Origin: Myxococcota bacterium
GTDB lineage: Bacteria > Myxococcota_A > Polyangia > Polyangiales > Sandaracinaceae
Direction of reading: 5' to 3'
NCBI GenBank assembly: GCA_036149055.1
Contig: JAYZQJ010000001.1
Coordinates: forward strand, 1 to 53,257
DNA length: 53,257 bases
Below, one piece after another: positions 266 to 20,025 of the stretch. Position numbers and translations under genes: made by a program. How positions within the stretch are numbered: position 1 is the stretch's first letter; every line of letters starts with the position of its first letter. A model generated the notes under the pieces. The model worked only from the letters and a program-made list of their open reading frames with translations, did not search any database and had not been told where the DNA came from.

Positions 266-403
266 CTTCGGGTCCTCGCCGGCTCTCGAGGGGGCAGATC
301 GGCCCCGCGCCGATCAGCCGACGCAGCAATCGTTCGTTCTGGCGGAAACGGGCAGCGCACGATCGCCGGCCCGAGCCCGCCACGCGCTCGCTTGGACCGG
401 GCG

Positions 404-436
404 GTACCACCTACCGGAGGCTTCGGTACCTGGTAC
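404..436. repeat. Imperfect palindrome (REP-like or HUH-element end candidate)
   Basis: GTACCA-CC-TACCGGA-GGC-TTCGGTA-CC-TGGTAC: two stems separated by a symmetric CC/CC internal loop. Confidence 0.45.
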
Positions 437-460
437 GGAGTCGGATCAGCCGGAACGGGC

Positions 461-2326
461 TCAGATCAGCGGGTTGATCCGCTCGAGGTCGGAGCCGCCG
501 GCGTATCCGTAGCTGCCGACCGAGTGATACCCGTAGACCATGATCCCCACCGGGAGGTCGGCGTCTACAGTGTGCGCGCCGGCCTCGACCGGGCAGGTGA
601 CGGCTTCGTAGGTCGTGCCGTCGAGCTCTCCGGCGCTCTCGTAGGTGCAGCGCGACATGAACTCGTCGCCGCGGATGTCGCCGCCGTCGAGCAGGACGCT
701 CGTGCCGACCGGGGCGCTGATGACGACGTAGTCGACGCTGAAGGTGCTCGGGGTGAGGAAGACGTAGCTCTCGCGGTACTGCTGGTACGGCGGGTAGAGG
801 ATCATCGAGGGGTCGCCGCCGTGGCCGCTCTTCCAGTCCGAGACCCAGCCCTGGCTGACCAGGATCTGCTCGATGCTCACCGGCGCGTCGGCGCGCAGGA
901 TGAAGGAGCGCTGGGAGTAGAACTCGCGCCACTGGCCGGGCTCGAGGACGAAGGTGTTGTCGGGGGCCGGGAGGTTGGTGGTCACGGTGGTCCGCGCGCG
1001 GTCGGCCATGATGCGGTAGATGTCCGGCTCGGCCCACGAGCGGCCGCGCTGCGGGCTGCGGGTCATGACGAAGTCGCGGCCCCACGCGGTGGTGGGGAAG
1101 ACCTGCTCCTCGAGGTGCTCGGTGCAACACCAGTCGTCGGGCATGCCGCCGGGGGGCGCGGGGACGCCGTCGGTGCTCAGCGGCGCGATGCCTCGCTCGC
1201 CTCCGCTGAAGACCGCCACCGGCGCGCTCGACTCGACGACGGTCCCCGTCAGGTCGCCGGGGGCCCCGTCGCTCTCCAGGTTCAGGACGTCGTACGCGCC
1301 GAGCGTCGTCTCGTAGACCTCCCCCGGCGCGAGCGGGCCGATGCCGAGGCCGTAGTTGTCGCCGACGATCGCCGCGCCCGCGGTGACCCGCACGGTGGTG
1401 CCCGCCTGCGTGCCGACGATGGTCACGAACGAGCGATCCGGGATGCCCTCGATGTTGCCGAAGGGCTCGATGGGGTTGGCGCTCCCCCACCCCAGGATGC
1501 GGTGGTGGTTGTCCAGCCCGCTCGCCGGGATGAGCAGCGAGGCGTCGTTCGAGAACGACTGGATGATCGGGTTGAACTGATACGCGACGACCGGGAAGTT
1601 CGTCGTGATCCGGTAGGCGTGACTGCTCAGCCAGGTGCCGCGGGTGTCGGCGTTGTCGGTCTGCGGGCCGTCCACCTCGCGCTGATCCAGCTCGATCTCG
1701 AGCACGTCCCGCGGCCCCACGGTGCCCTGGAAGACCTGCCGCTCGACCGGCGTGGTGCCCAGCGGCGCGTCGTTGACGAACACCCGCACCGTCGCGGTGA
1801 CGTCCGAGGGGTTGGCGATCGCGACCGCGTACTGCTCGGAGTAGGCGTCCTCGCTGACCAGGGATCCGCTCGCGTAGGCGTTGTCGAGGTCCACCGCCCA
1901 GTACTCGCAGCCGATGTTCGACCGGTTGGCGACCGCGTCGGCGCAGGCGCTCTGGCACATGCCCACCCGGCCGGACGCGCTGCAGATCTCGTCGGCGGTG
2001 CACGACATCTCGATGTCGAAGCCCGAGCCGTCCGCGCGGCAGCGGTAGAGGTCCGATCCATTGCACGTGTAGTGGTCGGGGCGGCAGGCGACGCAGCCGA
2101 GGCCGTCGGCGCAGACGGTGTCGCCGGTGCAGGTGGTCTCCGGGACGAGCGACCCGCCCTGACACCGCGCGACGACCTCGCCCGGCTGGCAGTAGAGCTG
2201 CCCGTTCATGCACGGGCCGGCGTCCGCCACCGAGCCGTCCGGGCCCCCCGGCGGGTCGTCGCCCCCGGCGGTGCAGGCGGCGAGCGAGAGGGCGAAGCAG
2301 AGCGCGACGGCGGCGTGAGGTCTCAT
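461..2326 (-). CDS. Lipoprotein with Cys-rich N-terminus and IgGFc-binding-protein N-terminal domain
   Basis: Lipobox LAAC; SNIGCEYWAVDLDN, AYRITTNFPVVAYQFNP, SNDASLLIP, HLEEQVFP...WG and C-terminal VYGY..SYGYAGG, typical of myxobacterial IgGFc-binding-domain proteins. Confidence 0.8.
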   Translation of the reverse strand: MRPHAAVALCFALSLAACTAGGDDPPGGPDGSVADAGPCMNGQLYCQPGEVVARCQGGSLVPETTCTGDTVCADGLGCVACRPDHYTCNGSDLYRCRADGSGFDIEMSCTADEICSASGRVGMCQSACADAVANRSNIGCEYWAVDLDNAYASGSLVSEDAYSEQYAVAIANPSDVTATVRVFVNDAPLGTTPVERQVFQGTVGPRDVLEIELDQREVDGPQTDNADTRGTWLSSHAYRITTNFPVVAYQFNPIIQSFSNDASLLIPASGLDNHHRILGWGSANPIEPFGNIEGIPDRSFVTIVGTQAGTTVRVTAGAAIVGDNYGLGIGPLAPGEVYETTLGAYDVLNLESDGAPGDLTGTVVESSAPVAVFSGGERGIAPLSTDGVPAPPGGMPDDWCCTEHLEEQVFPTTAWGRDFVMTRSPQRGRSWAEPDIYRIMADRARTTVTTNLPAPDNTFVLEPGQWREFYSQRSFILRADAPVSIEQILVSQGWVSDWKSGHGGDPSMILYPPYQQYRESYVFLTPSTFSVDYVVISAPVGTSVLLDGGDIRGDEFMSRCTYESAGELDGTTYEAVTCPVEAGAHTVDADLPVGIMVYGYHSVGSYGYAGGSDLERINPLI

Positions 2327-2391
2327 CGCGAGACCCGTGTCCTCCCGCGCCCGTCACCGATCACCGGACGCGGCGTCTCCTGTGCGTTCCA

Positions 2392-3516
2392 TCACCACGC
2401 GTAGACGGCGTCCTCGCCGTGACGCTCCACGAGCCCGTCGACGTGCTCGAGGAGATGACGCCGCCGGACCTCGAGGTTCGCCAGCTGCCGCTCGCTCAGG
2501 GTCGGCGCCAGCGGGTCGGCGGCGAGCCGCGCCTGGAACGCCTCGACGTCGAGGTCGCGCACCGCGTCGATGGTCTCCCGGCGGAAGCGCTGCACCTGGT
2601 GGAGGCGTCGATCCATGAGCGGGATGCGCGCGCGCCCGAGGGTGAAGGCGGCCGCGTTGTCGAGGAACATCAGCGGTCCGCCCTCGCCGACGGTCCGGAT
2701 GTTGGTGTTGTGCCCGCCCCATCGGTCGAGGTTGTTGGTGAGGTAGTCGAAGACGATGAGGTCGCTCATCTCGGCGGGTCGGTCCTCGACGTCCGGCGCG
2801 GGCGCGGCCGGCACGCTGCGGGTGCGTCCGGCGGCGCGCGCGCGACGGTAGGCGCCCGGCCGCTGGAAGGGCGACACCTCGGGCGGCTCGCCCTCGATCA
2901 GGAGCCATCGCTCCCAGCCGTCGGGCAGCGCGACCGGGCGGAGCCGCTCGGGCACCCACCAGATGAACGCGCCCTGGATCGAGCCGTCCTCGGCCGGCCG
3001 GAGCTCGTCCACCCGCGCGTCCGACGCCGCGGCCCGCGCGAGGTCCTCGTGCGACACCGACCGGGCGACCGAAGGCGCGGTGCGGCCGAAGCCCAGCTCC
3101 CGGTCGAGGTGATAGGCGGCGATCTCCGCCGTCCAGTTCATCCCGTTGAACGACTGCGCCGGCTTGAAGAAGCCCTCGGTGCCGTCGTCGAGGGTGATGC
3201 GGAACGAGAGCGAGCGGCCGCCGTGGCCGCGGCGCACCTCGGACACGTCACCTCGCGACAGCGCGCGCCGGATCGGAGCGTCCCGGTGCTCGAAGAAGCG
3301 GTCCTCGCGCACCGCCTGCGCGGGCGGCGCCGGCGCGTCTTCGGTCACGCGGGCGGTGACGACCGCGGGCGCGGCGACGGCCGGGCGCGCCTCCTTCTCT
3401 CCGCTGCGGACCTTCGCCGACGCTTGCCCCCCGCCCACTGCCCCCAGCGCGAGGATCGCGGCGGCCGCCGCCCACCGTGTCCGCCTTGCCGCGTTTCCGT
3501 CTCCGAGCTTCCTCAT
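2392..3516 (-). CDS. Secreted Four-jointed/Fam20C-like atypical kinase
   Basis: ATG at 3516 with GGAGGAG RBS; hydrophobic signal segment; motifs GHGGRS, FFKP, EIAAYHLDRELGFGR, DLIVFDYLTNNLDR, FLDNAAAF. Confidence 0.75.
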   Translation of the reverse strand: MRKLGDGNAARRTRWAAAAAILALGAVGGGQASAKVRSGEKEARPAVAAPAVVTARVTEDAPAPPAQAVREDRFFEHRDAPIRRALSRGDVSEVRRGHGGRSLSFRITLDDGTEGFFKPAQSFNGMNWTAEIAAYHLDRELGFGRTAPSVARSVSHEDLARAAASDARVDELRPAEDGSIQGAFIWWVPERLRPVALPDGWERWLLIEGEPPEVSPFQRPGAYRRARAAGRTRSVPAAPAPDVEDRPAEMSDLIVFDYLTNNLDRWGGHNTNIRTVGEGGPLMFLDNAAAFTLGRARIPLMDRRLHQVQRFRRETIDAVRDLDVEAFQARLAADPLAPTLSERQLANLEVRRRHLLEHVDGLVERHGEDAVYAW

Positions 3517-3561
3517 CGCTGGCCCTCCTCCCCGGGGAATCGCCCCGCGATCGACGGAGAC

Positions 3562-3594
3562 TGCAGGGAGCGAGCCAGCGGATCGCGGGTTGCA
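3562..3594. promoter_or_regulatory. Back-to-back sigma54-like (-24/-12) motifs for the divergent kinase and NAGPA genes
   Basis: Minus strand 3577-3562 TGGCTCG-CTCC-CTGCA; plus strand 3579-3594 CGGATCG-CGGG-TTGCA. Both keep the GG-N10-GC spacing. Confidence 0.4.
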
Positions 3595-3607
3595 GCTCGG
3601 GGACTCC

Positions 3608-4729
3608 GTGAAGACGTCACCGATCGTGGTGTGGCTCGTGTTCGCCCCGGCCATCGCCCTGGCCCAGCCCGAGCCCCCCTCCGCCGAGATCCCCCGCGCG
3701 CTGGGCGAGCCGCGCGATACCTGGACCGACCCGAACCCGGGCGTCCGTCATCTCTCCCGCCGCTACGCGTCCCCGCCGATCCGCGTGCACGCTCTGGTGG
3801 TCGACACCCGCGTGGAGGGGGTGCGGGTCGTCGCCACCCCCGAGGCCGAGCGCTGGGGCACGGTCACCGACTTCGCGACCTCGCGAGGCGCGGCGGCCGC
3901 GATCAACGGCGGCTTCTGGGGGCTCTGGCAGAGCCCACACGGCATCACCGCGGGGGGCGGCGCGCTCTGGGATCGCAGCACCCCCGACCCGGACTTCGGT
4001 CACTTCGGCGTGCTCGAGGGCGGCCGCGGCGTCGTCCACGCGCCCGGCGAGGGCGAGGATCCGTCCAGCCTCGCGCGGCTCCACGACGCGGTCGCCGGCC
4101 GCCCGGTGCTCGTGACCGGCGGCGAGGTCGACACGGCGCGCCTCGACGGCTTCGAGACCGCGAACCTCCGTCAGCCTCGCACGGCGATCGGCGTCTCTCG
4201 GGACGGGCGCACCTTCGTGCTCGCGGTGGTCGACGGCCGGCAGGGCCACAGCGTCGGCTTCACCCTCTATCAGCTCGCGCGGCTGCTCGTGGAGCTCGGC
4301 GCGCACCGGGCGATCAACCTCGACGGCGGCGGGTCGAGCGCGATGTACATCGCCAACGAGGGCGGCGTGGTCACCTCCCCCGCGCGGGGGCGCTGGGTCC
4401 GCGCGCTCGGGTTGGGGGAGGCGGAGACCCGGCGGGTGCGCACCCAGGACGGCGCGCGCGACGTCTACGTGCGCGGCGTCGAGCGGGAGGTGATGAACCA
4501 CCTCGCGGTGATCGCGCCCGCGCCGGAGCGCGACGTGGCGGTGCGCGGCGTCGACAGCGCGCTCGCCGACGGCCTCGGGCCCATCCGGTCCGAGCCGCTG
4601 GCCGCGCCGCGCTCCTCACCGATCCGGCTCGGTCGCCTCCGGGAGCTGGTCGCCCCCGCGCTCACGTTCGGCGCGCCCGCGATCCTGCTGCTCGGCGTGG
4701 TGGTGCTGCGCCGCCGCCGGGCGTCATGA
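3608..4729 (+). CDS. Phosphodiester glycosidase (NAGPA family) with signal peptide and C-terminal membrane anchor
   Basis: GTG start, signal peptide ...AIALAQ; INGGFW, PRTAIGVS, VVDGRQ, AINLDGGGSS motifs; C-terminal TM helix followed by RRRR. Confidence 0.85.
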   Translation: MKTSPIVVWLVFAPAIALAQPEPPSAEIPRALGEPRDTWTDPNPGVRHLSRRYASPPIRVHALVVDTRVEGVRVVATPEAERWGTVTDFATSRGAAAAINGGFWGLWQSPHGITAGGGALWDRSTPDPDFGHFGVLEGGRGVVHAPGEGEDPSSLARLHDAVAGRPVLVTGGEVDTARLDGFETANLRQPRTAIGVSRDGRTFVLAVVDGRQGHSVGFTLYQLARLLVELGAHRAINLDGGGSSAMYIANEGGVVTSPARGRWVRALGLGEAETRRVRTQDGARDVYVRGVEREVMNHLAVIAPAPERDVAVRGVDSALADGLGPIRSEPLAAPRSSPIRLGRLRELVAPALTFGAPAILLLGVVVLRRRRAS

Positions 4730-5593
4730 GCTCGAGAGCAGGCCGGCCAGCGCGGACGGCGGGATCTCGTAGACCTGGCCGCAGTAGTCGCAGGTGATGT
4801 GCAGCGACTCCTCGCTCGACATCAGGTCCTCGATGTCCGAGCGAGGCAGGGTCGCGAGGCTGCTCAGCACCCGCACCGAGCTGCAGTGGCAGCCGAAGCG
4901 GAGCTGGGTCTCCTGCGTCTTCTCGAACGGCATCTGCCAGAGGATCTCGGAGAGCATCTCGTCGGGGTCCTTCTGGATGCCGCGCACGACCGAGGGGATG
5001 TCGGAGAAGTCCGCGTCGAGTCGCTCCGTCATCACCGCCAGCGGCGCCCGGCTCACCTCGGGCAGGAGCTGCACCAGGTAGCCTCCGGCCGCGACCAGCT
5101 CGCCGCCCTCGAACACGCAGCCGACGCGGGCCACCGAGGTGATCTGCTCCGACGTCTGGAAGTAGCCCATGAGCGCGCCGCTGATCCCCGAGGCCGGCAC
5201 CTCGACCATGCCCTGGTTCACCGCGCCGGTCGGGAGGGTGCGCATCATCACCATCACCGCGCCGTCTCCGAGCGAGACCTCCTTCAGGCCCTTCGGGCGC
5301 TGGATGAGGCCGCGGGCGCTGCCGTCCGGGTGGCTGTCGCCGACGAGCGTGCCCCGCTGGTCGGGACCGCGCACGATGCCCTGCACCCGGTAGGTGGGGG
5401 CCATGGTGAGCCGGACGAGGATGCTCCCGCTCAGCACGTCCGCGAGGTTGCGCGCGTTGTCGCCCTCGATCTCCTGCGTCTCGATGGAGCGGCGCACGGT
5501 GTCGGTCGTGCGCATCACGATGACCCGGAAGGCGCCGTCGTGGGTCACCGCGGTGACCGCGCGGTCGCCGCTCGATTCGGTCTCGTCCGTCAT
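4724..5593 (-). CDS. hslO: Hsp33 redox-regulated chaperone
   Basis: YFQTSEQI, AAGGYLVQLLP and C-terminal zinc centre CHC...CDYC; start re-picked at MTDETES. Confidence 0.92.
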   Translation of the reverse strand: MTDETESSGDRAVTAVTHDGAFRVIVMRTTDTVRRSIETQEIEGDNARNLADVLSGSILVRLTMAPTYRVQGIVRGPDQRGTLVGDSHPDGSARGLIQRPKGLKEVSLGDGAVMVMMRTLPTGAVNQGMVEVPASGISGALMGYFQTSEQITSVARVGCVFEGGELVAAGGYLVQLLPEVSRAPLAVMTERLDADFSDIPSVVRGIQKDPDEMLSEILWQMPFEKTQETQLRFGCHCSSVRVLSSLATLPRSDIEDLMSSEESLHITCDYCGQVYEIPPSALAGLLSSS

Positions 5594-5683
5594 TTGAGGC
5601 CAGGTGTACGTCTCCACGGCGTCGGGCGCCACGACCTGCCGGGCGACGCTTCTTTGCCCGATGCCGAGGAGCCGCGGCATCCT

Positions 5684-6637
5684 GTGAGGGTGGGAGAGCG
5701 ACTCCGTCTGGGCGACATGCTCGTGGCCGCCGGCCTCGTCACCGAGGCGCAGGTCCAGGAGGCGCTCGGGGAGCAGAAGAAGCGCGGCAAGCGCCTCGGC
5801 GAGACCCTGGTCGCCCTCGGCTACGTGAGCGAGGCGCAGATGACCCAGATCGTCTCCAACCAGCTCACCATCCCCTGGGTGAATCTGTATCACGTGGACT
5901 TCAGCCGGGAGCTGCTCGACCTCGTCCCGGCCGCCCTCGCCGAGGAGCACTCGCTGGTGCCGGTCTACGTCCGGAACGTGCGTCGCCAGGGCGATACCCT
6001 CTACGTGGCGATGGAGGACCCGCTCAACCTCGACGCCCTGCAGCTCGTCGCCGACCACGCGGGGCTCCCGGTGAAGCCCATGGTCGCCTCGCCCACCGAC
6101 CTCGAGAACGCGATCCGGGTCTACTACCTCGGCCTGCCGCCGCTCGAGGAGGGGGAGGCGCGCCCGTCGATGCCGGCGCCGCGCAAGAGCGACATCGAGG
6201 AGCTGGAGCTCGCGGAGGACGAGCTGCAGGAGCTGGCCGACAGCCTCCCCCCGCCCGACGTCGACGCGGAGCCGGAGCCGGAGGAGCAGGGCCCGACCGC
6301 GACGCCCTCGGTGCCTCCGCCGGCGCGCCCGGGGCCGGGCTTCCTGACCCTGACCCTGCTCGACGGGACGCAGGTGCGTCTCCCCTCGGGCGGCTCCAAG
6401 AAGCCCGCCGAGGAGGAGGAGCCCGAGGCGCGCGGCCTCACCACCCGCGATCTCATCCACGCGCTGCAGGCCCGCGCCGCCGGGGAGGACGTCTCGGACG
6501 TGGTCCCCGAAGATCAGTGGGAGCCGCTGGTGGCCGCGCTGCTCTCGGTGCTCCTGCGCAAGGGGCTCATCGCCGACTGGGAGTTCGTCGACGAGTGGAA
6601 GAAGCAGCGGGAGCGCTCGACGCGAAAGAAGCGATGA
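5684..6637 (+). CDS. Stand-alone MshEN (GspE/PilB N-terminal, c-di-GMP-binding) domain protein without ATPase
   Basis: Tandem motif RLGDMLVAAGLVTEAQVQEALGEQ / RLGETLVALGYVSEAQ, then LYVAMEDPLN; no Walker A; acidic Pro-rich linker. Confidence 0.82.
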   Translation: MRVGERLRLGDMLVAAGLVTEAQVQEALGEQKKRGKRLGETLVALGYVSEAQMTQIVSNQLTIPWVNLYHVDFSRELLDLVPAALAEEHSLVPVYVRNVRRQGDTLYVAMEDPLNLDALQLVADHAGLPVKPMVASPTDLENAIRVYYLGLPPLEEGEARPSMPAPRKSDIEELELAEDELQELADSLPPPDVDAEPEPEEQGPTATPSVPPPARPGPGFLTLTLLDGTQVRLPSGGSKKPAEEEEPEARGLTTRDLIHALQARAAGEDVSDVVPEDQWEPLVAALLSVLLRKGLIADWEFVDEWKKQRERSTRKKR

Positions 6638-7584
6638 CGTTCTTCCTGACCCGGCCGCTCTCGATCGATCCGCGCGAGGTCGTCGGCGACGAGGTGGAGG
6701 TGCGGATCTTCCAGCACGTCCGGGTGCCGACGCCCGACGAGGTCGCGCGCGCCGCGAGGGGCTGCACCACGCTGCTGACCCTGGTGAGCGATCCGGTCGA
6801 CGGCGCGCTGCTCGACGCGCTGCCCGAGGTGAAGCACGTCGCCCAGGTCGCCGTCGGCTACGACAACGTGGACGTCGAGGCTTGCCGGTCCCGCGGGGTG
6901 CTGGTCACCCACACCCCCGGCGTCTTGACCGACGCGACCGCCGATCTCGCGATGACGTTGATCCTCTCCGTCGCTCGCCGGGTGCGCGAGGGCGAGCAGC
7001 TGCTGCGAGACGGTCGCTTTCACGGCTGGTCGCCGACCATGCTGCTCGGCATGGAGCTGAGCGGGCGCACCCTCGGCGTCTTCGGCTTCGGCCGCATCGG
7101 GCGCGCGGTGGCGCGGCGCGCCCGCGCCTTCGGCATGGAGGTCGTCTACTGCTCGCGCTCGGAGGTGCCGGGCGAGGACGCGCGGCGGGTCTCCTTCGAG
7201 GCGCTGCTCGCCGAGAGCGACGTGATCAGCCTGCACGCGCCGCTGACCGACGAGACCCGGCACGCCTTCGACGCCGCCGCGCTCGCTGCGATGAAGCCGG
7301 GCTCGATCCTCGTCAACACCGCTCGCGGTCCTCTGATCGACGAGCGGGCGCTGGCGGCCGCGCTCGAAGACGGCCCGCTCTTCGGCGCCGGCCTCGACGT
7401 CTACGAGCACGAGCCGGCGGTGCACGTCGGGCTGCTCGATCGCGACGACGTGGTGCTGCTCCCTCACCTCGGCAGCGCCACCGAGGCGGCGCGTCGGCGA
7501 ATGGCCGAGACCGCGCTCCGGGACGCGCTGGCGGTGCACCGCGGCGAGCGCCCCGCGTTCGTGATCCCGGAGCTGTCGTCTTGA
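6634..7584 (+). CDS. D-glycerate dehydrogenase / glyoxylate reductase (D-2-hydroxyacid dehydrogenase)
   Basis: AVGYDNVD, TPGVLTDATAD, GFGRIG, NTARG, GLDVYEHEP, LLPHLGSAT; ATGA overlap with the upstream gene. Confidence 0.92.
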   Translation: MTFFLTRPLSIDPREVVGDEVEVRIFQHVRVPTPDEVARAARGCTTLLTLVSDPVDGALLDALPEVKHVAQVAVGYDNVDVEACRSRGVLVTHTPGVLTDATADLAMTLILSVARRVREGEQLLRDGRFHGWSPTMLLGMELSGRTLGVFGFGRIGRAVARRARAFGMEVVYCSRSEVPGEDARRVSFEALLAESDVISLHAPLTDETRHAFDAAALAAMKPGSILVNTARGPLIDERALAAALEDGPLFGAGLDVYEHEPAVHVGLLDRDDVVLLPHLGSATEAARRRMAETALRDALAVHRGERPAFVIPELSS

Positions 7585-10236: not shown

Positions 10237-10348
10237 GGGCGGCGGAGCATAGCGGAGGGGTCCGGTCGGGGCGAGCCGGCGGCCCGGGCGGCTGGTGTAC
10301 AACCGCGGCGTGGAATCCCCCGGGCTCGCTCTCGCGTTGCGACCCTCG

Positions 10349-12502
10349 ATGCGCGCCGCTCTCCTCTGCCTCGGCTTGCTCGCCGCGCTCGCCACGCCGG
10401 CCGCGCCGCGGGTTCGGGCGCAGGACGATCCGTTCGAGGCGATCGCGCCGCTGGTCCGCCGCCGCGCGGACGCCGAGGCCCTCCGGGCGCTCGTCCGCTC
10501 GCCCGGCCCGGTCCGGGACGGATCCCGCGGGCGCTATCTGCGCGGCCGGCTGCTCGAGCGGCTCGGTCGCTGGGCGGAGGCGGCCGAGGCCTTCCCGGTG
10601 GACGAGGCGGCGGCCGGGCTGCCCGACACCGTGCGCGCCGACGCCGCCCGCCGACGCGCGATCGCCCTGGCCCGGGCCGGTCGATGCGAGGCGGCGGCGG
10701 CGCTCCTCGAGGACCTCGGGGACGACCCGCTGATCCAGGCCCGGGCGGCGGAGTGCCGGCTCGCGAGCGGCGACGAGGGCGCGGTCGAGGCCCTCCGGCG
10801 GGTGGTGGCGCGCGCGGCGCCGGCGGTGGATCTCTTCGCGGCGCGCTTCGAGCTGGCCGAGGCCCTCGCCCGGGCCGGCGAGCGCGAGGAGGCGCGGCGG
10901 GTGCTGCTCGAGCTGAGCCTCGACCGGGTCGAGCACCCGGAGGCGCCCCGCGCCTGGGCCGCGCTCGAGGCGCTGACCGACGGAGAGGTCGCGCTCACCT
11001 TCGACCAGCGGCTGCGCCGGGCCGAGCGCCTGATGGAGGTGCGCCGCTACCCCGAGGCGCTGACCGAGCTCGAGGCCGCCGGGCGCCCGCCCGGCCGGGC
11101 GGAGCTGAGGCGCTTCCTGCACGCGCGGGGCATGGCCCTCTACCAGACCCGGCGCCGCTACCCCGAGGCGGCGGAGGTGCTGGCCGAGAGCGCCGGGCTC
11201 GGCGGCGCCCACGCGGCGGACGACGCCTTCCACGCGGCCCGCGCGCTCTCCCGCGCCGATCGAGACCGGGAGGCGATCCGCGCCTACCGTCGCTTCGCCC
11301 GCCGCTACCGCAGCCATCAGCGCGCCGCCGAGGCGACCTACCTCGCGGCCTGGCTCGAGCTGCGGCACGGGCTCGCGGGCGGCGAGCGGCAGATGAGCCG
11401 CTTCGTGCGGGGCCCGCTCGCCGATCGCGCCCCCCGGCTGGCCCGCGACGGGCGCTGGCAGCTCGCCCTGCGCGCCTTCGAGCGGGGCCGGCACCGCCGC
11501 GCGGCCGAGCTCTTCCAGCGCTACGCCGACAGCGACGCGCAGCCCCTCGTGCGAGGCCGGGGGCTCTACTGGGTGGGCCGGGCGCACCACGCGCGCGGGG
11601 ACCATCGGGCCGCGATCGCGGCCTACCGGGAGGCGCTCTACGTCGAGCCGCTCCACTGGTACGGGATGCTCGCCCGGCAGCGGCTGATGGAGCTCGGCGA
11701 GGACTCGCCGCCGCCCTTCCCGGAGCCGCCCGAGGACGGGGCCGAGGACGCGCCGCCGCTCGCGCTGCCGGAGGACGCTCGGCTCTACGCCGCGCTCGGC
11801 CTCCGCGAGGACGCCCGCGACGCGCTCCGGTCCCGCGAGCGCGAGCTCCGTCGGGCCGACGGGCTGCGCGCGGTGGTCGAGGCCTACCAGCGGCTCGGCG
11901 AGCCCTCGCGCCTGGTTCGGCTCGCGGGCGGGCCCTCCACCACGCGGCGGCGCGCCCAGCCCGGCCCGGCCGACCGGTGGCGCTGGGACGCGGCCTATCC
12001 CCAGCCCTGGCGCCGCGAGGTCCAGAGCGCGGCCCGCGCGGCGGGGCTCTCGCCGGCCCACCTCTACGCGGTGATGCGGCAGGAGAGCGGCTACGACCCG
12101 GACGCGGTCAGCTACGCCGACGCCATCGGGCTCATGCAGCTCATCCCGCCGACCGCCGCGCGGCTCGCCGAGGACATGGGCCTGGAGCTCGAGCGCGAGA
12201 TGCTCTTCGACCCCGCGGTCAACGTGCGCCTCGGCGCCGCCTACGTCGGCGCGCTCGTGCGTCGCTTCGGCGTCCCGCTCGCCTTCGCCGCGTTCAACGC
12301 CGGGGAGCACCGGGTGGCCGAGTGGCTCGAGGAGCAGGGGCGCACCGAGCTGGATCTCTTCGTCGAGCGCATCCCCTTCCAGCAGACCCGCAACTACGTG
12401 CGTCGCGTGACCACGCACTTTGCGCACTACCTCTACCTCCGCGATCCCGCCGGCGGCTGGCCGCTCACCCTGCCCAGCCACGTCCCCGTCCCCGCCGACT
12501 GA
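10349..12502 (+). CDS. slt: Soluble lytic murein transglycosylase (Slt70-like; TPR region plus SLT domain)
   Basis: Signal peptide, helical TPR-like region, catalytic MRQES, AIGLMQL, NVRLGAAY, AAFNAG, FVERIPF.QTRNYV. Confidence 0.88.
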   Translation: MRAALLCLGLLAALATPAAPRVRAQDDPFEAIAPLVRRRADAEALRALVRSPGPVRDGSRGRYLRGRLLERLGRWAEAAEAFPVDEAAAGLPDTVRADAARRRAIALARAGRCEAAAALLEDLGDDPLIQARAAECRLASGDEGAVEALRRVVARAAPAVDLFAARFELAEALARAGEREEARRVLLELSLDRVEHPEAPRAWAALEALTDGEVALTFDQRLRRAERLMEVRRYPEALTELEAAGRPPGRAELRRFLHARGMALYQTRRRYPEAAEVLAESAGLGGAHAADDAFHAARALSRADRDREAIRAYRRFARRYRSHQRAAEATYLAAWLELRHGLAGGERQMSRFVRGPLADRAPRLARDGRWQLALRAFERGRHRRAAELFQRYADSDAQPLVRGRGLYWVGRAHHARGDHRAAIAAYREALYVEPLHWYGMLARQRLMELGEDSPPPFPEPPEDGAEDAPPLALPEDARLYAALGLREDARDALRSRERELRRADGLRAVVEAYQRLGEPSRLVRLAGGPSTTRRRAQPGPADRWRWDAAYPQPWRREVQSAARAAGLSPAHLYAVMRQESGYDPDAVSYADAIGLMQLIPPTAARLAEDMGLELEREMLFDPAVNVRLGAAYVGALVRRFGVPLAFAAFNAGEHRVAEWLEEQGRTELDLFVERIPFQQTRNYVRRVTTHFAHYLYLRDPAGGWPLTLPSHVPVPAD

Positions 12503-12590
12503 CAGCCCGTTGCTGCTGCGCGTGCGGGGCTTACTCATCGCAGAGGCAGCGCACCGCGGGGGGCGGCGCGCCGATCGAGAGGCTTTCGCG

Positions 12591-14528
12591 ATGCAGAGAC
12601 TCGCTCTGGTGATCCCGTGCGTCCTGTGCCTCGTCGGGTGCGACGACGGCATGGGTGACCCCATGGCGCCCCCGGGCGCGCGCTCCTACGTGCTGCGCGT
12701 CGAGAACGTCGCCGGCGCGTCCTTCCCGAGCGCGATCTCGCCGGGCGTGTGGCTGGCCCACGCCGACGCCGATCCGCTCTTCACCGAGGGCGAGCGCGAC
12801 CGGGGCGAGGGGCTCGAGGCGCTGGCCGAGGACGGCGATCCGTCGGCGCTCGCCGCGACGCTCGATCCCGCGCTCTCGGGGATCTTCGGCGACGGGCCGC
12901 TCGCGCCCGGGGAGTCCCTCGAGGTCACCGTGCACGTCACCGGCGAGCGGCCGCGGCTGAGCTTCGCGACCATGCTCGTCGAGACCAACGACGTCTTCCT
13001 CGCCCCGGCCGGCGACGGGATCGACCTGAGCGGCATCACCGCGGAGACCGACATCACCGACCGCCTGCAGCTCTGGAACGCGGGCACCGAAGACGACGAG
13101 GCCCCGTTCCTCGGCCCGCACCAGGCCCCGCGGCAGCAGACGCCGGGCGCCGGGCCGGTCGAGGGCGTCATCCGTCACTTCGGCGCCGCGACCCGGACCC
13201 TGCCGCGCAGCTTCGACATGCTCGCGATCCGGGTCACCGAGGCGGGCGGCACCTACACCTTCGCCTTCGAGAACGTCTCGATGGACCGGCGAAACTTCGT
13301 CACCCCGCTCTCGCCGATCTTCTGGGCGCTGCACGGCGACGAGTGGCGCCTCTTCACCGCCGGCGAGCCGGCCCCGGCGGGCCTGGACGAGCTGGCCGAG
13401 ATCGGGGATCCGCGCGCGCTCCTGCGCGGGGCGATGGGCGCGCCCGGGGTGGCCGACGCCGGGATCGCCAACCAGCGCGTCGGGAGCGGCGACTTCGGGC
13501 TCCTGCGCCCGGGCGACGTCTTCGAGATCGAGGTCACGCCCGACGCCGATCACCCGCGGCTCTCGTTCGCGACGATGCTGATCGCCACCAACGATCTCTT
13601 CCTCTCGTTCCCGGGCGAGGGCCTGGCCCTGCTCGACGAGGACGGCGCGCCGCGGAGCGCGGCCGAGGTGGAGCGCGAGGCCCGGCGCTGGCTCGCCGCC
13701 TGGGACGCGGGCACCGAGGCGAACGAGGTCCCGGCCGGCGGGCATCACCAGGGGCCGGTCGGCGGGCTCGACGACATGCCCGACGATCCCAACCCGGCGG
13801 TGCGCCTCTACGACGACTTCACGAACGACGTCGAGGGGCCCGGCGCCAACGGCCTGGTGGAGGTCACCATCACCCACCAGAGCGGCACCACCTTCCAGGT
13901 GCGGGTGCGCAACGGCTCCGACACCATGCCCTTCAACGCGCTGCTGACCCCCTTCGTCTGGATCGTGCACGACGACGGCGACGGCCTCTTCGGCGTCGAC
14001 GGGCTGCAGTCGCCGGGGCTGATCGAGCTCGGCGAGGACTGCCTGACGAACCTGCTGCACCAGGAGATGCAGGCGAACGAGTCGGTGGTGAGCTCCGGGG
14101 TGGTCAGCGTGCCCGACATGAGCACGACCTCGGCGCCGATCTTCCCGGGGGAGAGCTTCACCTTCGAGGTCACGCTGGACGCGGCGCACCGCTTCTTCAA
14201 CCTGGCCTCGATGCCCTACCCCTCGAACGACATGTTCGTCGCCTTCGAGCCGCCGGGCGTGGCCCTGCTCGACGAGGGCGGCTCGCCCCGCTCCGACGCC
14301 GCGATCGCGTCCGACGTCGCCGCGCTCTTCTACGCCTGGGACACGGGCACCGAGGCCAACCAGGCCGGCGGCGGCGGGCGGGACAACGTGCCGCTCCAGA
14401 ACAACGAGATGCTCACCGACGTCGGCGCCTCCGAGGGCGACGGCACGGTGCGCGCGGAGCCCGACCCGACCTACGGCTTCCCGAGCCCGGCCGAGCTGGT
14501 GCGGGTCACCATCGCGCCGGTCGAGTGA
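12591..14528 (+). CDS. Lipoprotein with three tandem Spondin_N domains
   Basis: Lipobox LVGC; three copies of V.N...(S/T)P..W..H...LxE.G...LSFATML..TND.F...W(D/N)AGTE. Confidence 0.8.
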   Translation: MQRLALVIPCVLCLVGCDDGMGDPMAPPGARSYVLRVENVAGASFPSAISPGVWLAHADADPLFTEGERDRGEGLEALAEDGDPSALAATLDPALSGIFGDGPLAPGESLEVTVHVTGERPRLSFATMLVETNDVFLAPAGDGIDLSGITAETDITDRLQLWNAGTEDDEAPFLGPHQAPRQQTPGAGPVEGVIRHFGAATRTLPRSFDMLAIRVTEAGGTYTFAFENVSMDRRNFVTPLSPIFWALHGDEWRLFTAGEPAPAGLDELAEIGDPRALLRGAMGAPGVADAGIANQRVGSGDFGLLRPGDVFEIEVTPDADHPRLSFATMLIATNDLFLSFPGEGLALLDEDGAPRSAAEVEREARRWLAAWDAGTEANEVPAGGHHQGPVGGLDDMPDDPNPAVRLYDDFTNDVEGPGANGLVEVTITHQSGTTFQVRVRNGSDTMPFNALLTPFVWIVHDDGDGLFGVDGLQSPGLIELGEDCLTNLLHQEMQANESVVSSGVVSVPDMSTTSAPIFPGESFTFEVTLDAAHRFFNLASMPYPSNDMFVAFEPPGVALLDEGGSPRSDAAIASDVAALFYAWDTGTEANQAGGGGRDNVPLQNNEMLTDVGASEGDGTVRAEPDPTYGFPSPAELVRVTIAPVE

Positions 14529-15587: not shown

Positions 15588-16648
15588 ATCTGGGAGACCA
15601 CCCACTCGCCGACCGCACGGGTGCCGAGCTCGCCGCCGACGTCGGCGGTGCAGTGGCCCTCGTCGACGGCGCGGCGCACGAGGTCGACCAGGCGGGCCTC
15701 CTCCTCGGGCCAGCCGAGGTGGGTCATCATCATGCCGATCGTCAGCACGGTCGCGAGCGGGTTCGCCTTGTCTTCGCCGGCGATGTCGGGCGCCGAGCCG
15801 TGGACCGGCTCGAACAGGCCGATGCGGCCCGGGTGCACGTTGGCGCTCGCCGCCATGCCGAGGCCACCCTGCAGCGCGGCGCCGAGATCGGTGACGATGT
15901 CACCGAAGAGGTTGTTGGTGACGACGACCTCGAACTGCGACGGATCGCGGATCAGGTTGAAGCAGAGCGCGTCGACGTACTGGTGCTTCGCCTCGATGCC
16001 CGGGTAGTCGGCGGCGACCTCGCGGAAGCAGCGCTGCCAGAGCTCGTGGGCGTGCTTCATCGCGTTGGATTTGTCGGCCATGTGTACGCGGGTGCGGCCG
16101 TGGGCCTTCGCGAAGTCGAACGCGGCGCGGATCACTCGCTCGACGCCCTTGCGAGTGTTCACGTCCTCGTTGATCGCGACCTCGTCCGGCGTGCCCTTCT
16201 TGAACTGGCCGCCGACGTTCACGTAGATGCCCTCGGTGTTCTCGCGGAACACCACCATGTCGCAGTCCCGGGCCGTCTTGCCCTTCAGCGGCATGAGGCG
16301 GTCGCTGAGGCACTGGATCGGGCGGATGTTGCAGTAGAGATCGAGCCCGAAGCGCAGGCCGAAGAGGATGTCGCGCGCGTAGTCGAGGCTCGGGACGCGG
16401 GGGTCGCCGAGCGCGCCGAGCAGCACCGCGTCGCAGGTCTCGCGGATCGTCCGCTGGTCTTCTTCCGGAAAGGTGGCACCGTCCCGGAGAAATCGATCGG
16501 CGCCGAGGTCGAAATGCACCAGCTCGATTTGGTAGCCTCGCGTCTCGGCGAGGCGCTCGAGGAGCGCGACGCCGACCGCCACCACCTCCTTGCCGATGCC
16601 ATCCCCCTCGATGATCGCGATGCGCTTCTGGTCCGACTGCTCCGACAT
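15584..16648 (-). CDS. leuB: Isocitrate/isopropylmalate dehydrogenase family, probably 3-isopropylmalate dehydrogenase
   Basis: GDGIGKEV, RENTEG.Y, DKSN, NLFGDIVTD, FEPVHGSAPDIAG; a tartrate/D-malate dehydrogenase is not excluded. Confidence 0.75.
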   Translation of the reverse strand: MSEQSDQKRIAIIEGDGIGKEVVAVGVALLERLAETRGYQIELVHFDLGADRFLRDGATFPEEDQRTIRETCDAVLLGALGDPRVPSLDYARDILFGLRFGLDLYCNIRPIQCLSDRLMPLKGKTARDCDMVVFRENTEGIYVNVGGQFKKGTPDEVAINEDVNTRKGVERVIRAAFDFAKAHGRTRVHMADKSNAMKHAHELWQRCFREVAADYPGIEAKHQYVDALCFNLIRDPSQFEVVVTNNLFGDIVTDLGAALQGGLGMAASANVHPGRIGLFEPVHGSAPDIAGEDKANPLATVLTIGMMMTHLGWPEEEARLVDLVRRAVDEGHCTADVGGELGTRAVGEWVVSQI

Positions 16649-16783
16649 GGCGGCGGAAGGTAGCACCGACTTCACGGACGGGTCGCCCGTTCAGCACGAA
16701 TCTCGCTTCCCGCGCACTGCCTTCTTGACACTGCGGCGCGTTCACGGGAGCTTTTCCGCTACGCGCATGCCCAGGCGCCGTCC

Positions 16784-17551
16784 ATGAACATCATCGCTGC
16801 AGGACTGTCCGACGTCGGGCAACAGCGGGAGCACAACGAGGACTCCTTCTGCATCCTGCCCGAATACGATCTCTTCATCGTCGCTGACGGGATGGGAGGT
16901 CATCGGGCTGGGGACGTGGCGTCCAAGATGGCCACGCACACCATCGCGTCGTTCTTCCAGGCGACGTCGAAGGAAGACGCGACGTGGCCCTTCCACTTCG
17001 ACCCGCACCTGTCGGTCGAGGAGAACCGCCTCATCACCGGCATCAAGGTGGCGAACAAGCGGATCTTCGAGGCCTCGACCCGCTACCGCGAGGTCCACGG
17101 CATGGGCACGACGGTGGTCGGGGCGCTCTTCTCGCCCGAGCGAGGCCGCATGTACGTGGCCCACGTGGGCGACAGCCGGGCCTACCGGGTGCGCGGCGGT
17201 GAGATCACGCAGCTCACCCGCGACCACTCGCTGCTCAACGACTACCTGCTCGTCATGCCCGACATGACCCAGGAGCAGCGCGACGAGCTGCCGAAGAACG
17301 TCATCACCCGGGCGCTCGGCATGCAGGACTCGGTGGTCGTCGACCTCGTGCCCGAGCAGCCGCACGTCGGCGACGTCTACGTCCTCTGCTCCGACGGCCT
17401 CAGCGGCATGATGGAGGACGACGAGATCCGCGAGATCGTGAACAGCCACGCCGGGGACCTCGACGCGGCCTCGCAGGCGCTGATCGACCTCGCCAACGCC
17501 AACGGCGGCGAGGACAACATCACCGTGGTCCTGCTCGGCATCACCGAGTAG
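16784..17551 (+). CDS. PP2C-family Ser/Thr protein phosphatase (Stp1/IreP type)
   Basis: [45 protein letters not shown]. Confidence 0.95.
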
Positions 17552-17590
17552 CGAATTCGTGCTAAGGCCCTCCCCGAACGGAGGACGCCC

Positions 17591-18100
17591 TTGGCCACGA
17601 AGATTCAGACGCGCGACCACTTCGCCGTCACGCCGCAGCAGTTCTGGGACGAGGTCTTCTTCGACGAGGCCTACAACCAGCAGCTCTACACCGACGCGCT
17701 GGGCTTCGTCGGGCTCGACATCCAGAAGATGGAGGGCGGCCCGGGCGAGCCGCGGCATCGGGTGATGAAGGCCGAGCCGAAGAGCGAGATGCCTTCGGTG
17801 ATGAAGAAGATCGTCGGCGACTCGCTGGCCTACACCGAGACCGGCGACTTCGACCCGAAGACCGGCATCTGGACCTACCGGGTCGTGACCAACAAGGTCG
17901 GCGACAAGGTGAAGATCGGCGGCAAGCTGTGGTGCGAGCCGAAGGGCGACGACGGCTGCATCCGCGTCGCCGAGGTCGAGATCGAGGTGAAGATCTTCGG
18001 GGTCGGCGGGACGATCGAGAAGTTCATCGAGAAGCAGACCCGCGAGAGCTACGAGAAGACCGCGACCTTCACCAACCGCTGGATTGCCGAGCGCGCCTGA
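17591..18100 (+). CDS. DUF2505-like (START/SRPBCC-fold) protein
   Basis: TTG start with GGAGG RBS; FWDEVFFDEAYN...EVKIFGVGGTIEKFI pattern. Confidence 0.7.
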   Translation: MATKIQTRDHFAVTPQQFWDEVFFDEAYNQQLYTDALGFVGLDIQKMEGGPGEPRHRVMKAEPKSEMPSVMKKIVGDSLAYTETGDFDPKTGIWTYRVVTNKVGDKVKIGGKLWCEPKGDDGCIRVAEVEIEVKIFGVGGTIEKFIEKQTRESYEKTATFTNRWIAERA

Positions 18101-18139
18101 TCGGGGCATGCTCCCGCCCGCTTTCGAACGGAGTCCGAC

Positions 18140-18289
18140 GTGGCCAAGAAGCAGCTGAACCCCGAGAACGAGCGCACCACCAGCCTCGACCTCGCCCTCC
18201 TCGTGGCGATGCCCGGCGTCATCGTCGTGCTCGGCGTGGTGATCTGGTACCTCGCGGAGCTCACCACCGCCGCGATGCAGGCGGGCTGA
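18140..18289 (+). CDS. 49-aa single-pass membrane microprotein (absent from the ORF track)
   Basis: GGAG RBS, GTG start; MAKKQLNPENERTTSLDLALLVAMPGVIVVLGVVIWYLAELTTAAMQAG*; third positions almost all G/C. Confidence 0.7.
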   Translation: MAKKQLNPENERTTSLDLALLVAMPGVIVVLGVVIWYLAELTTAAMQAG

Positions 18290-18295
18290 CCTCGC

Positions 18296-19147
18296 TCACT
18301 CGATCAGCGCCCACGGGCGCCGGATGACCGCGCTCCGGTAGGCGCCGACCTCGGCGTCCTCGACGCGAACGAGCACCCCCTCGGCGTCCTCGGGCACCCG
18401 CTCGTGGAGCGGCATCAGCTCGTCGAGGCCGCACGGGAGCGCGGCCCGGGGGCAGCGCGCCCAGCCCGAGGGCGTGCGGGCCAGCGCGGCGAGTCGGCTC
18501 CGGGCGTGCTGCGCCCAGGCGGCGGCGAGCAGACCGGCCCACGCCACCCCGAGCGCGAGCCACGGCGGCCGTCCAGCGAGCAGGCAGACGCCAGCCACCG
18601 CCCCTCCGGCCACCGCGACGGTGAGCCCGACCGCCCAGCCGACTCGCGACGGGCTCGCGAGGGTCGGCCGGCGCCGCGCGAGGTGGAGCTCGGGGCCGGC
18701 GTAGGCGCAGCCGAGGCCGTAGAGGGCGCCGAGCGGGGCGCCGACGAAGAGCCCCAGCACGAGGCCGCTCACCCAGCCGGTGACGAGCGCCTCGAGCCAC
18801 CTGTCCGGGGCATGCCCCGCCAGGAGCAAGGTGCAGGTCACCGGGGCAGTGAGCCAGCCGGCGAGGGCGCAGTTGGCAACGAGATGCATGCGGACCCGCC
18901 AGCCGAGGCGCGAGTCCTGGGCCGGCTTGCGGATCCCCCGAGTGAGCGCGAGCGCGAACAGGCCCGCGATCGAGAGTCCGGCGGCCACCAGCAGCCCGCT
19001 GGATCCGAGCGCGGCCGTCACGCGCGGAGACGAGCCCAGCAGGAGGTCCACGATCACGGCGCCGAGCGCCCCGCCGGCGACGGCCAGCGCCAACGACCCG
19101 GCCCGGGTCGCGCGCCCGCCGCAGCCTCGCCTCGAGGGGGTCTTCAT
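18296..19147 (-). CDS. Multi-pass membrane protein, paralog of 19144-20025
   Basis: About six hydrophobic segments; LHLARRRPTL and C-terminal PLH...VLVRVE...GAYR shared with its neighbour. Confidence 0.7.
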   Translation of the reverse strand: MKTPSRRGCGGRATRAGSLALAVAGGALGAVIVDLLLGSSPRVTAALGSSGLLVAAGLSIAGLFALALTRGIRKPAQDSRLGWRVRMHLVANCALAGWLTAPVTCTLLLAGHAPDRWLEALVTGWVSGLVLGLFVGAPLGALYGLGCAYAGPELHLARRRPTLASPSRVGWAVGLTVAVAGGAVAGVCLLAGRPPWLALGVAWAGLLAAAWAQHARSRLAALARTPSGWARCPRAALPCGLDELMPLHERVPEDAEGVLVRVEDAEVGAYRSAVIRRPWALIE

Positions 19148-20025
19148 GCCGGCTCCGACCCCGGGGTGACGCCCGGTGTTCCCGGCGGCGCGTCCACCAG
19201 CGCCAGCGGGACCCGGAGATCGCCCCGCCGATAGGCGCCGCCCCCGCGCCCCTCGAGCCTCACGAGCACCTGACCCGGCGCGTCGCTCACCCCGTCATGC
19301 AGGGGGAGCACGCCGGCGAGCGCGTCCTCGAAGCTCGAGCGCGGCACGCGGGCCAGGCCCTCGGGGAGCGGCCCGTCCCACCGCATCAGTCGCCAGCGCG
19401 CGCGGCGCCCCGCCGCGGCCGCGACCCCGCCGGCCACCGACACCGCCGCGGCCCCGCCCGCGACCGCCACGTGGCCGCCCGCGGCCAGCGCGATCGTCAT
19501 CGCGAGCCCGGCGAAGCCGACCGTCGCGCCCACCGCGGCGGCGACGCCCGGCCCGGCGGTCAGGGTGGGGCGGACCCGGGCCGCGTGGAGCGCGCCCCCC
19601 ACCCACCGCGAGAGCAGGCCGCCGAAGAGCCCGACCGGGGCCGCGAAGAACGGCCCGAGGAAGGCCGCGCCGCAGACGAGCGCGACCGAGAGGCCAGCGT
19701 CCGCGACGCTCCGGTCTGCGGACCGGACCATGAGCTCTCCTGCGCCCAGCGCCGCCACCGCCACGAAGGCGCCCCAGGCGTAGAGGCCGCACGACCACAC
19801 GACGCGCTCGTCCAGGTCCGCGCTGTGCAGCAGCCCCCGGGCGCGCTCCGGCTGATCCGTCGCGGCCCAGATCGCGCGCGCGTAGAACGCGCCCACGACC
19901 ACCGCCGCGAGGAGCGCGGCCGGGTCGAAGCCCGCGGCCGAGAGCGTCCCCAGGCCGAGCAGCGTCGCGGTGGCCACGCCGAGCGCGGCGACGCCCCAGA
20001 CGGCTGGACGCGAAGATCGCTTCAC
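19144..20025 (-). CDS. Multi-pass membrane protein, paralog of 18296-19147
   Basis: GTG start (MKRSSRPAVWG); LHAARVRPTL; PLH...VLVRLE...GAYR; ATGA overlap with the downstream paralog. Confidence 0.7.
   Translation of the reverse strand: MKRSSRPAVWGVAALGVATATLLGLGTLSAAGFDPAALLAAVVVGAFYARAIWAATDQPERARGLLHSADLDERVVWSCGLYAWGAFVAVAALGAGELMVRSADRSVADAGLSVALVCGAAFLGPFFAAPVGLFGGLLSRWVGGALHAARVRPTLTAGPGVAAAVGATVGFAGLAMTIALAAGGHVAVAGGAAAVSVAGGVAAAAGRRARWRLMRWDGPLPEGLARVPRSSFEDALAGVLPLHDGVSDAPGQVLVRLEGRGGGAYRRGDLRVPLALVDAPPGTPGVTPGSEPA

Follow-up and report, generated by a model that had tools for sequence, protein, structure and literature searches.

A Fam20-type kinase gene and a divergent NAGPA-type glycosidase gene form a conserved pair in Polyangiales

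The window analysed here, a stretch of 53,257 nucleotides from a marine Myxococcota bacterium of the Sandaracinaceae (assembly GCA_036149055.1, contig JAYZQJ010000001.1, positions 1-53,257, forward strand; source genome of 9.9 Mb in 289 contigs), carries three adjacent genes coding for an IgGFc-binding-domain lipoprotein, a Fam20-family kinase and a NAGPA-type phosphodiester glycosidase. Comparison with related genomes revealed that the kinase gene and the divergent NAGPA gene form a conserved two-gene unit. With slightly better than even confidence, we favour the reading that an exported, probably active Fam20-type kinase and an outward-facing NAGPA-type glycosidase act as this conserved unit on an envelope or secreted glycoconjugate; functional coupling of the two proteins, taken by itself, seems a little more probable still. 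An earlier note on this locus had listed the three genes, gaps of 65 and 91 bp between them and four motifs in the kinase, all of which we recovered by checking the open reading frames (ORFs) and motif positions. Its description of a signal-peptide kinase, a lipoprotein and a membrane-anchored NAGPA protein is consistent with the hydrophobic segments found by a 15-residue Kyte-Doolittle scan.

The protein encoded at 2392-3516 is, with very high confidence, a member of the Fam20 family and fold. It scores 35.1 bits on the Pfam family Fam20C (PF06702), above the cut-off of 26.8 (E 1.4e-8), and PF06702 is the precomputed assignment of most of the 120 homologs listed for it. A single-sequence phmmer search against the PDB retrieved FAM20A (1.3e-9) and FAM20C (8e-8) and also matched the Hydra xylosylkinase (all three at E 1e-9 to 1e-7), while a profile of 23 family members matched FAM20C best (4.2e-26) and every other solved Fam20 protein too. 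When the AlphaFold2 (AF2) model of the kinase, built on the family alignment (pLDDT 82.9, pTM 0.78), was submitted to Foldseek, the top matches were Fam20C, Fam20A, C. elegans Fam20 and Hydra Fam20 (E 6e-15 to 2e-12, TM ~0.56). Ranks 1-28 were held by Fam20C, Fam20A and Fam20B chains only (E 6e-15 to 1e-9, TM 0.49-0.58), followed by PI4KII, CtkA and actin-fragmin kinase. The Fam20-type identity proposed in the earlier note is thus borne out by the PF06702 cut-off, the FAM20C profile match and the AF2 fold match, in comparisons that rest on Fam20 models and structures and do not separate Four-jointed from Fam20. The nearest bacterial cluster in the ESM Atlas bears the automatic name 'Golgi casein kinase, C-terminal, Fam20 domain-containing protein', so that the Fam20 assignment of this cluster is already present in automatic annotation.

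Within the kinase core, which begins at about residue 70, the four motifs occupy residues 117-119 (FKP, window positions 3160-3168), 131-142 (EIAAYHLDRELG, 3091-3126), 252-265 (DLIVFDYLTNNLDR, 2722-2763) and 284-287 (FLDN, 2656-2667). K118, E131, D138-R139, D252, D257, N262, D264-R265-W266 and D286-N287 are invariant in all 23 aligned family members. In the profile alignment, K118, E131, D264 and D286 fall on the FKP, AEIAAFHLDR, N-x-DRH and LDN segments of FAM20C, which makes them by alignment the ATP-binding lysine, the helix-C glutamate, the catalytic-loop aspartate and the metal-binding aspartate. Such invariance is expected under purifying selection on a phosphotransferase, and the protein is, judging from these residues, probably active as one.

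Animal Fam20C, Fam20B and Fam20A and the bacterial kinase have in common the Pfam family and the fold, as the top sequence and structure matches indicate, an N-terminal export signal followed by a lumenal or extracytoplasmic kinase domain, and the lysine, helix-C glutamate, catalytic aspartate (N-x-D-R) and metal-binding aspartate (L-D-N). Unlike its animal relatives, the bacterial protein is much shorter in the N-lobe, shares only about 20% identity with the solved structures (TM ~0.56) and is without cysteine, without the Fam20-specific acidic residue and without the Fam20B pocket residues. Section 9 of PMC5865150 describes four conserved disulfides in Fam20 enzymes, as well as a Gal-Xyl pocket in Hydra Fam20 made up of Tyr148-Glu149-Gly150-Tyr151, His301 and Lys321. 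The window kinase contains no cysteine at all, and the core is cysteine-free in 85 of 112 homologs. The pocket segment 148-151 sits in a ~12-residue N-lobe insert that the bacterial family is without; His301 and Lys321 correspond to an invariant Trp266 and an invariant Ala289, respectively (counted by hand on the 5xom alignment). By these features the kinase appears not to be an ortholog of Fam20B or Fam20C as far as substrate binding is concerned.

CotH, the spore-coat kinase of Bacillus, works inside the mother cell and not after export. The earlier note had suggested comparing the kinase fold with FJX1, Fam20C and CotH; the match to Fam20C was found, but a relationship to CotH was not seen, as the 45 fold matches with E <= 0.001 include no CotH chain and the Pfam matches at E <= 1 no CotH family. 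A passage of PMC12189002 states that CotH, an atypical bacterial kinase, has sequence similarity to Fam20C. Four-jointed (Fj/Fjx1), to whose superfamily the motifs given in the earlier note also belong, is presented in a passage of PMC3416761 as a distant relative of FAM20C working in the Golgi.

The kinase is likely to be exported by means of a Sec or lipoprotein-type leader. Its hydrophobic leader spans residues 16-30, and its ATG start is the same as in an identical database protein (P0004; 100%, 374 aa). Among 112 homologs with enough N-terminus, a heuristic scan for hydrophobicity and motifs, which is not a signal-peptide predictor, found a hydrophobic 12-residue leader stretch in 103 and a lipobox-like motif in 55; the nine leader-less homologs appear to be cut at the N-terminus.

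A protein collection clustered at 90% holds 141 matches to the kinase; the source names shown among the 120 listed homologs are all hypothetical proteins from metagenome bins of Sandaracinaceae, Myxococcales or Deltaproteobacteria. Relatives occur in 183 species genomes, almost all of the 80 best carrying the label Myxococcota, and the kinase profile retrieved 1869 clusters at 50% identity (E <= 0.001), possibly including eukaryotic proteins, and 199 at <= 1e-30. In a sample of the order (the Polyangiales in public records), a kinase match was found in 92 of 101 genomes at E <= 1e-8 and in 60 at <= 1e-100. The phylum sample gave a match in at least 112 of 401 genomes, a floor owing to a stricter first look in that search. 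From its sequence, the kinase appears as an ortholog within a large uncharacterised, mostly cysteine-free bacterial Fam20 branch that is common in Polyangiales.

The source genome carries one ortholog-type kinase and one distant paralog on contig C94 (G000:C94:14097-14519; L082:7432-8523). This 364-aa protein is Fam20-like and HipA_2-like (profile E 2.5e-37, Pfam HipA_2 5e-5), and its gene is flanked by one for cytochrome c assembly and one for a histidine kinase. In other Myxococcota families, five proteins of 890-1290 aa (L090-L094, from G006, G019, G211, G266 and G271) bear a Fam20-like domain at the C-terminus, and three of the five match zinc-ribbon domains at the N-terminus, an architecture that is undescribed as far as we looked. 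Neither the C94 paralog nor the large zinc-ribbon proteins of other families offered informative domain partners.

The second protein of the pair, encoded at 3608-4729, matches PF09992 (NAGPA) with 109.2 bits against a cut-off of 25 (E 3.2e-31). Its hydrophobic segments lie at residues 3-21 (signal-like) and 347-368 (C-terminal anchor), the latter followed by RRRR. A DGGGS loop begins at residue 239, and N237-L238-D239-G240-G241-G242-S243 is invariant in 13 of 13 orthologs. PMC13474241 describes, in the part bearing on this loop, DGGGS as strictly invariant from bacteria to humans and D286 as catalytic. Against the PDB, the NAGPA profile found the bacterial (Bacteroides) DUF2233 protein 3ohg (2.9e-22) and vertebrate NAGPA (6pky/6pku, 1e-16). 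The protein shares with the mannose-6-phosphate uncovering enzyme NAGPA and with 3ohg the PF09992 domain and its invariant DGGGS loop, and with the uncovering enzyme a type-I-like layout of signal, outward catalytic domain and C-terminal anchor, as predicted from the hydrophobic segments. Unlike the uncovering enzyme, it shows no evident EGF-like stalk or propeptide, and its closest PDB match is the DUF2233 protein rather than vertebrate NAGPA.

Longer NAGPA proteins (n=35) are fused to GH25 lysozyme (4), calcineurin-like phosphoesterase (9), PF00395, which we take to be SLH (2), and FG-GAP repeats (3), and PF02638, presumably GHL10, is also among the partners. These fusion partners fit an extracytoplasmic role on glycopolymers. 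Just before the C-terminal membrane helix (C-terminus of the window protein, positions 4610-4729), NAGPA orthologs also conserve a G-R-x-R-E-(L/W) motif, which may serve in sorting or in an interaction next to the membrane.

Linkage of the two genes was assessed in two passes. The first covered the 80 best related loci, with tblastn at E <= 1e-5 for both neighbours of the kinase, and found NAGPA divergent upstream in 7 of 80 loci (L002, L003, L004, L007, L010, L048 and L065), or 6 of the 68 with >= 2 kb upstream. This count was misleading because a single clade that lacks NAGPA made up the bulk of the sample, and the initial view that NAGPA linkage is confined to the clade of the window was overturned by order-wide searches. 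The second pass comprised 101 genomes of the order, searched with the window NAGPA protein (P0003) and the kinase profile, and 401 genomes of the phylum, searched with the NAGPA profile. Its search tables held the best 150 matches each; coordinates were compared by hand and doubtful cases checked on fetched DNA.

Among the matches listed, an ortholog-level NAGPA is present in at least 36 genomes: 33 with a best E <= 2.6e-54 in the order search, one with a split match (G419), and two from the phylum search (G220 and G240). The gene stands head to head with the kinase gene in 31 of these 36 genomes and in tandem upstream, on the same strand as the kinase, in one (G240), so that the link proposed in the earlier note is conserved well beyond the source genome (32 of 36), in counts that come from related genomes and are hence not independent events. 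It lies away from the kinase in only two, being next to a rotamase gene in G407 and having no kinase within ~3.7 kb in G220; in G415 and G462 it is at a contig end. The 32 adjacent pairs are spread over eight families (f1, 9; f9, 3; f78, 2; f5, 3; f4, 2; f74, 1; f7, 11; f3, 1). In f7, the pair is found in the same orientation in 11 of 11 genomes despite a distant kinase subtype that lacks the central insert and matches the profile at ~1e-30.

The genes that enclose the pair vary. The outer neighbour of NAGPA is Hsp33 in the window and L002, a sulfate permease in G065, an ABC permease in G185 and G400, a NUDIX protein in G424, an epimerase in G240, an MFS transporter in G120 and a PP-loop ATPase in G457. 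On the kinase side, many genomes have agmatine deiminase and the window clade has the IgGFc lipoprotein, whereas DUF2079/ThiE is found in G400, an AlkZ-like protein in G457 and an RCC1-repeat protein in L048. None of the three other NAGPA paralogs of the source genome has a kinase beside it. Most likely, the kinase can work without NAGPA, and the NAGPA ortholog is almost never away from the kinase.

In the reading that we favour, both enzymes would act outside the cytoplasm on one glycoconjugate, either secreted or part of the envelope. A hydroxyl of a sugar or protein would receive phosphate from the kinase, and the NAGPA-type enzyme, membrane-anchored with an outward catalytic domain, would take the sugar cap off a sugar-1-phosphate diester, so that a phosphomonoester remains. 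Direct analysis gave the family membership and fold, the conserved catalytic residues, the leaders and the linkage of the genes; the export and activity of both proteins, their shared substrate and the order of the steps we infer. The usual writer of hexose-1-phosphate diesters is a Stealth-family transferase; Stealth_CR2 (PF11380), searched for as the candidate writer, was found in 0 of 101 order genomes, but control genomes were equally silent. A complex prediction with the kinase core (70-374) and the NAGPA domain (30-310), made from separate alignments, scored 0.00, which speaks neither for nor against binding.

Several observations weigh against this reading. An ortholog-type kinase (E <= 1e-100) occurs in 60 genomes, of which 19 have NAGPA next to it, 39 are without an adjacent NAGPA and 2 fall in neither group; matches to the P0003 query at E <= 1e-10 were listed for 1 of 11 genomes of f3, 0 of 12 of f72 and 0 of 10 of f73. 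In 64 of 81 loci the kinase gene is immediately followed by agmatine deiminase (PAD_porph) and then carbon-nitrogen hydrolase, and the adjacency of kinase and NAGPA could partly be inherited order because the region is syntenic in general. A search for fusions with the kinase yielded a single longer relative, which has no annotated domains, and the kinase domain occurs in 0 of the 35 longer NAGPA proteins, both being weak kinds of evidence. At the position of the Fam20-specific acidic residue the kinase has Met126, and its relatives have Ala, Ser or Thr (profile alignment to FAM20C). We also know of no periplasmic ATP supply.

The gene-order part of these observations suits a kinase that acts alone as an extracytoplasmic Ser/Thr protein kinase like Fam20C, NAGPA being an old neighbour kept by slow change of gene order. 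We regard this as possible though distinctly short of probable. The kinase is kept with all its catalytic residues in the 39 of 60 genomes without an adjacent NAGPA, the best PDB sequence match is to the protein kinase FAM20C, and the side with agmatine deiminase and carbon-nitrogen hydrolase is widely conserved too, with no obvious functional link. Against this, just 2 of the 34 genomes with visible neighbours have, among the matches listed, a NAGPA ortholog apart from the kinase. The pair also persists where the outer flanks on both sides differ, where its orientation has changed (G240) and where the kinase has diverged deeply (f7, 11 of 11).

The Met126 substitution and the apparent lack of ATP bear on a different alternative, namely a kinase fold without ATP phosphotransfer: a pseudokinase, a binding subunit, or an enzyme using another donor or chemistry, as in atypical kinase-fold enzymes. 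According to section 9 of PMC5865150, the acidic partner of the lysine is Glu213 in C. elegans Fam20 and Asp152 in Hydra Fam20; Fam20A has Gln instead, and the loss of the acidic residue contributes to its being a pseudokinase. The bacterial kinase likewise is without this ion-pair residue, its export signal would send it where we know of no ATP pool, and the pocket residues His301 and Lys321 of Fam20B are replaced by the invariant Trp266 and Ala289. Against this stand E131, K118, D264 and D286, invariant in 23 of 23, and we consider loss of ATP phosphotransfer unlikely.

The earlier note had placed the IgGFc-binding lipoprotein with the kinase and NAGPA in one module, as a possible substrate. 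Of the neighbourhood whose conservation across Myxococcota it proposed as a check, the kinase-NAGPA linkage held but the lipoprotein linkage did not: the lipoprotein is a clade-specific neighbour that lies outside the conserved unit. The protein (P0002) matches PF17517 (IgGFc_binding) with 187.2 bits against 25.6 (E 5.4e-55; 297 of 297 profile positions, residues 261-599). Its N-terminus, MRPHAAVALCFALSLAAC, contains LAAC, which reads as a lipobox, and a hydrophobic segment at residues 4-21, and a cysteine-rich segment follows with 14 Cys in residues 39-140. In the first pass, a lipoprotein gene was found downstream of the kinase in 7 of 80 loci (L003, L004, L005, L006, L007, L010 and L061), or 6 of the 72 with >= 2.5 kb downstream, and both partners were present in L003, L004, L007 and L010 (4 of the 62 with both flanks). 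Ten genomes of the order sample carry a lipoprotein ortholog (E <= 1e-150), which is beside the kinase in five (G000, G380, G458, G355 and G414) and elsewhere in five (G453, G360, G059, G419 and G401). The IgGFc family is multi-copy, with three Pfam matches in the source genome, and a single genome can contain as many as 12 matches to P0002.

A three-gene module with the lipoprotein as substrate therefore seems very unlikely to us: the lipoprotein follows the kinase only in that small share of loci and in half of the genomes that have an ortholog, and families f4 and f5, in which the kinase-NAGPA pair is present, have no match to P0002 at E <= 1e-20. Since the linkage is seen only in close relatives, the lipoprotein is not a conserved third part. 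In favour of the module are the kinase tree, where the window falls within a clade of eight rows (support 100/98) that each have at least one of the two partners, the 65-bp gap with no terminator-like hairpin detected, and the occurrence of the lipoprotein behind the kinase in a second lineage (L061; G414 of f84).

None of the papers listed by full-text literature searches deals with Fam20 kinases of bacteria or with Fam20 paired with NAGPA (for the joint-term search, this refers to the listed share of results, in which no paper contains both kinds of term), and we found no published description of the conserved kinase-NAGPA pair. Fam20 proteins are treated as animal secretory-pathway enzymes in PMC5865150, whose main text does not contain the word 'bacteria', and as animal secretory-pathway kinases in the review PMC7948968, where it occurs once, in a reference title. 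In its passages on FAM20B, a 2026 preprint (10.64898/2026.05.08.723234) gives Myxococcota as the sister group of FAM20B and lists this protein with the endomembrane functions that eukaryotes may owe to Myxococcota, with a signal that is 'not always unequivocal'. The kinase branch makes this remark on the sister grouping testable.

A large bacterial Fam20 branch with export leaders is hereby documented, together with a conserved partner from a second 'Golgi' family. If the kinase is active, phosphorylation outside the bacterial cytoplasm raises the questions of donor and target, and a small cysteine-free kinase with its partner offers a tractable entry to extracytoplasmic phosphorylation. A bolder extension, which we regard as improbable, is that the pair constitutes an extracytoplasmic 'phosphate-tagging' unit in which the kinase would write phosphate, or a sugar-1-phosphate from a donor other than ATP, on glycans or proteins that are secreted or belong to the envelope, and NAGPA would uncover or edit it, as a counterpart and possibly the source of Golgi phospho-tagging. 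If true, this would be a prokaryotic counterpart of Fam20 and of the mannose-6-phosphate uncovering enzyme, and it would come from a phylum from which eukaryotes have already been suggested to have received endomembrane genes.

Table 1. Positions of the genes and intergenic regions discussed, numbered from the first base of the window.
Feature	Position	Strand	Length	Basis or remark
IgGFc_binding-domain lipoprotein (P0002)	461-2326	-	621 aa	ORF and PF17517
Spacer, kinase stop to lipoprotein start	2327-2391	-	65 bp	
Fam20-family kinase, probably exported by its leader (P0001)	2392-3516	-	374 aa	PF06702, PDB matches, AF2 fold
Divergent intergenic region, kinase start / NAGPA start	3517-3607	.	91 bp	
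NAGPA-type phosphodiester glycosidase (P0003)	3608-4729	+	373 aa	GTG start; PF09992, PDB profile matches
Hsp33	4727-5650	-		
MshEN-domain protein	5699-6634	+		
D-2-hydroxyacid dehydrogenase	6517-7581	+		
SLT-TPR lytic transglycosylase	10253-12499			
ORF with weak Spondin_N match	12411-14525		705 aa	E 7e-8

Both promoters of the pair are presumably located within the divergent intergenic region. A simple promoter scan of positions 300-4900 found no sigma-70-like site, in this region or elsewhere in the range, and a terminator scan of the same range was likewise empty, with no terminator-like hairpin in the kinase-lipoprotein spacer; at 74% G+C, both scans are weakly informative. Seawater metatranscriptome contigs (X17 and X18, one study) and small-share runs (X19 and X20) partially cover the three genes at 95-100% identity, these contigs coming from RNA libraries that possibly contain DNA. 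One such contig (3379-4040) spans the divergent region, and none of those found bridges the kinase-lipoprotein spacer. Near-identical DNA is present in seawater and marine metagenomes from 12 studies. An NCBIfam search with the three proteins gave no meaningful match.

Agmatine deiminase is encoded within a few bases downstream of the kinase and on the same strand at L023:8889-9893 and at 63 other loci, and the same context is seen at L102:5327-7268, L106:5419-7519 and L107:1135-2232. An exported-type kinase would thus apparently share an operon with a likely cytoplasmic polyamine pathway; in the window clade, the lipoprotein takes that place. The block of Hsp33, MshEN-domain protein and dehydrogenase genes that follows NAGPA in the window is syntenic, as the same genes occur near the kinase in L044, L002, L061 and L043. 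In G240, a 490-aa membrane protein encoded two genes from the tandem NAGPA-kinase pair (L105:6915-8384; a single genome) matches part of the TLC ATP/ADP transporter profile (positions 27-110 of 491; E 5e-18), which is relevant to the question of nucleotide supply outside the cytoplasm.

Farther along the window, the ORF with the Spondin_N match, a domain better known from animal extracellular proteins, adjoins the lytic transglycosylase gene. G+C content is 71-79% in 24 of the 26 bins of the window; it drops to 0.66 at 16001-18000, and AT skew rises to 0.295 at 18001-20000.

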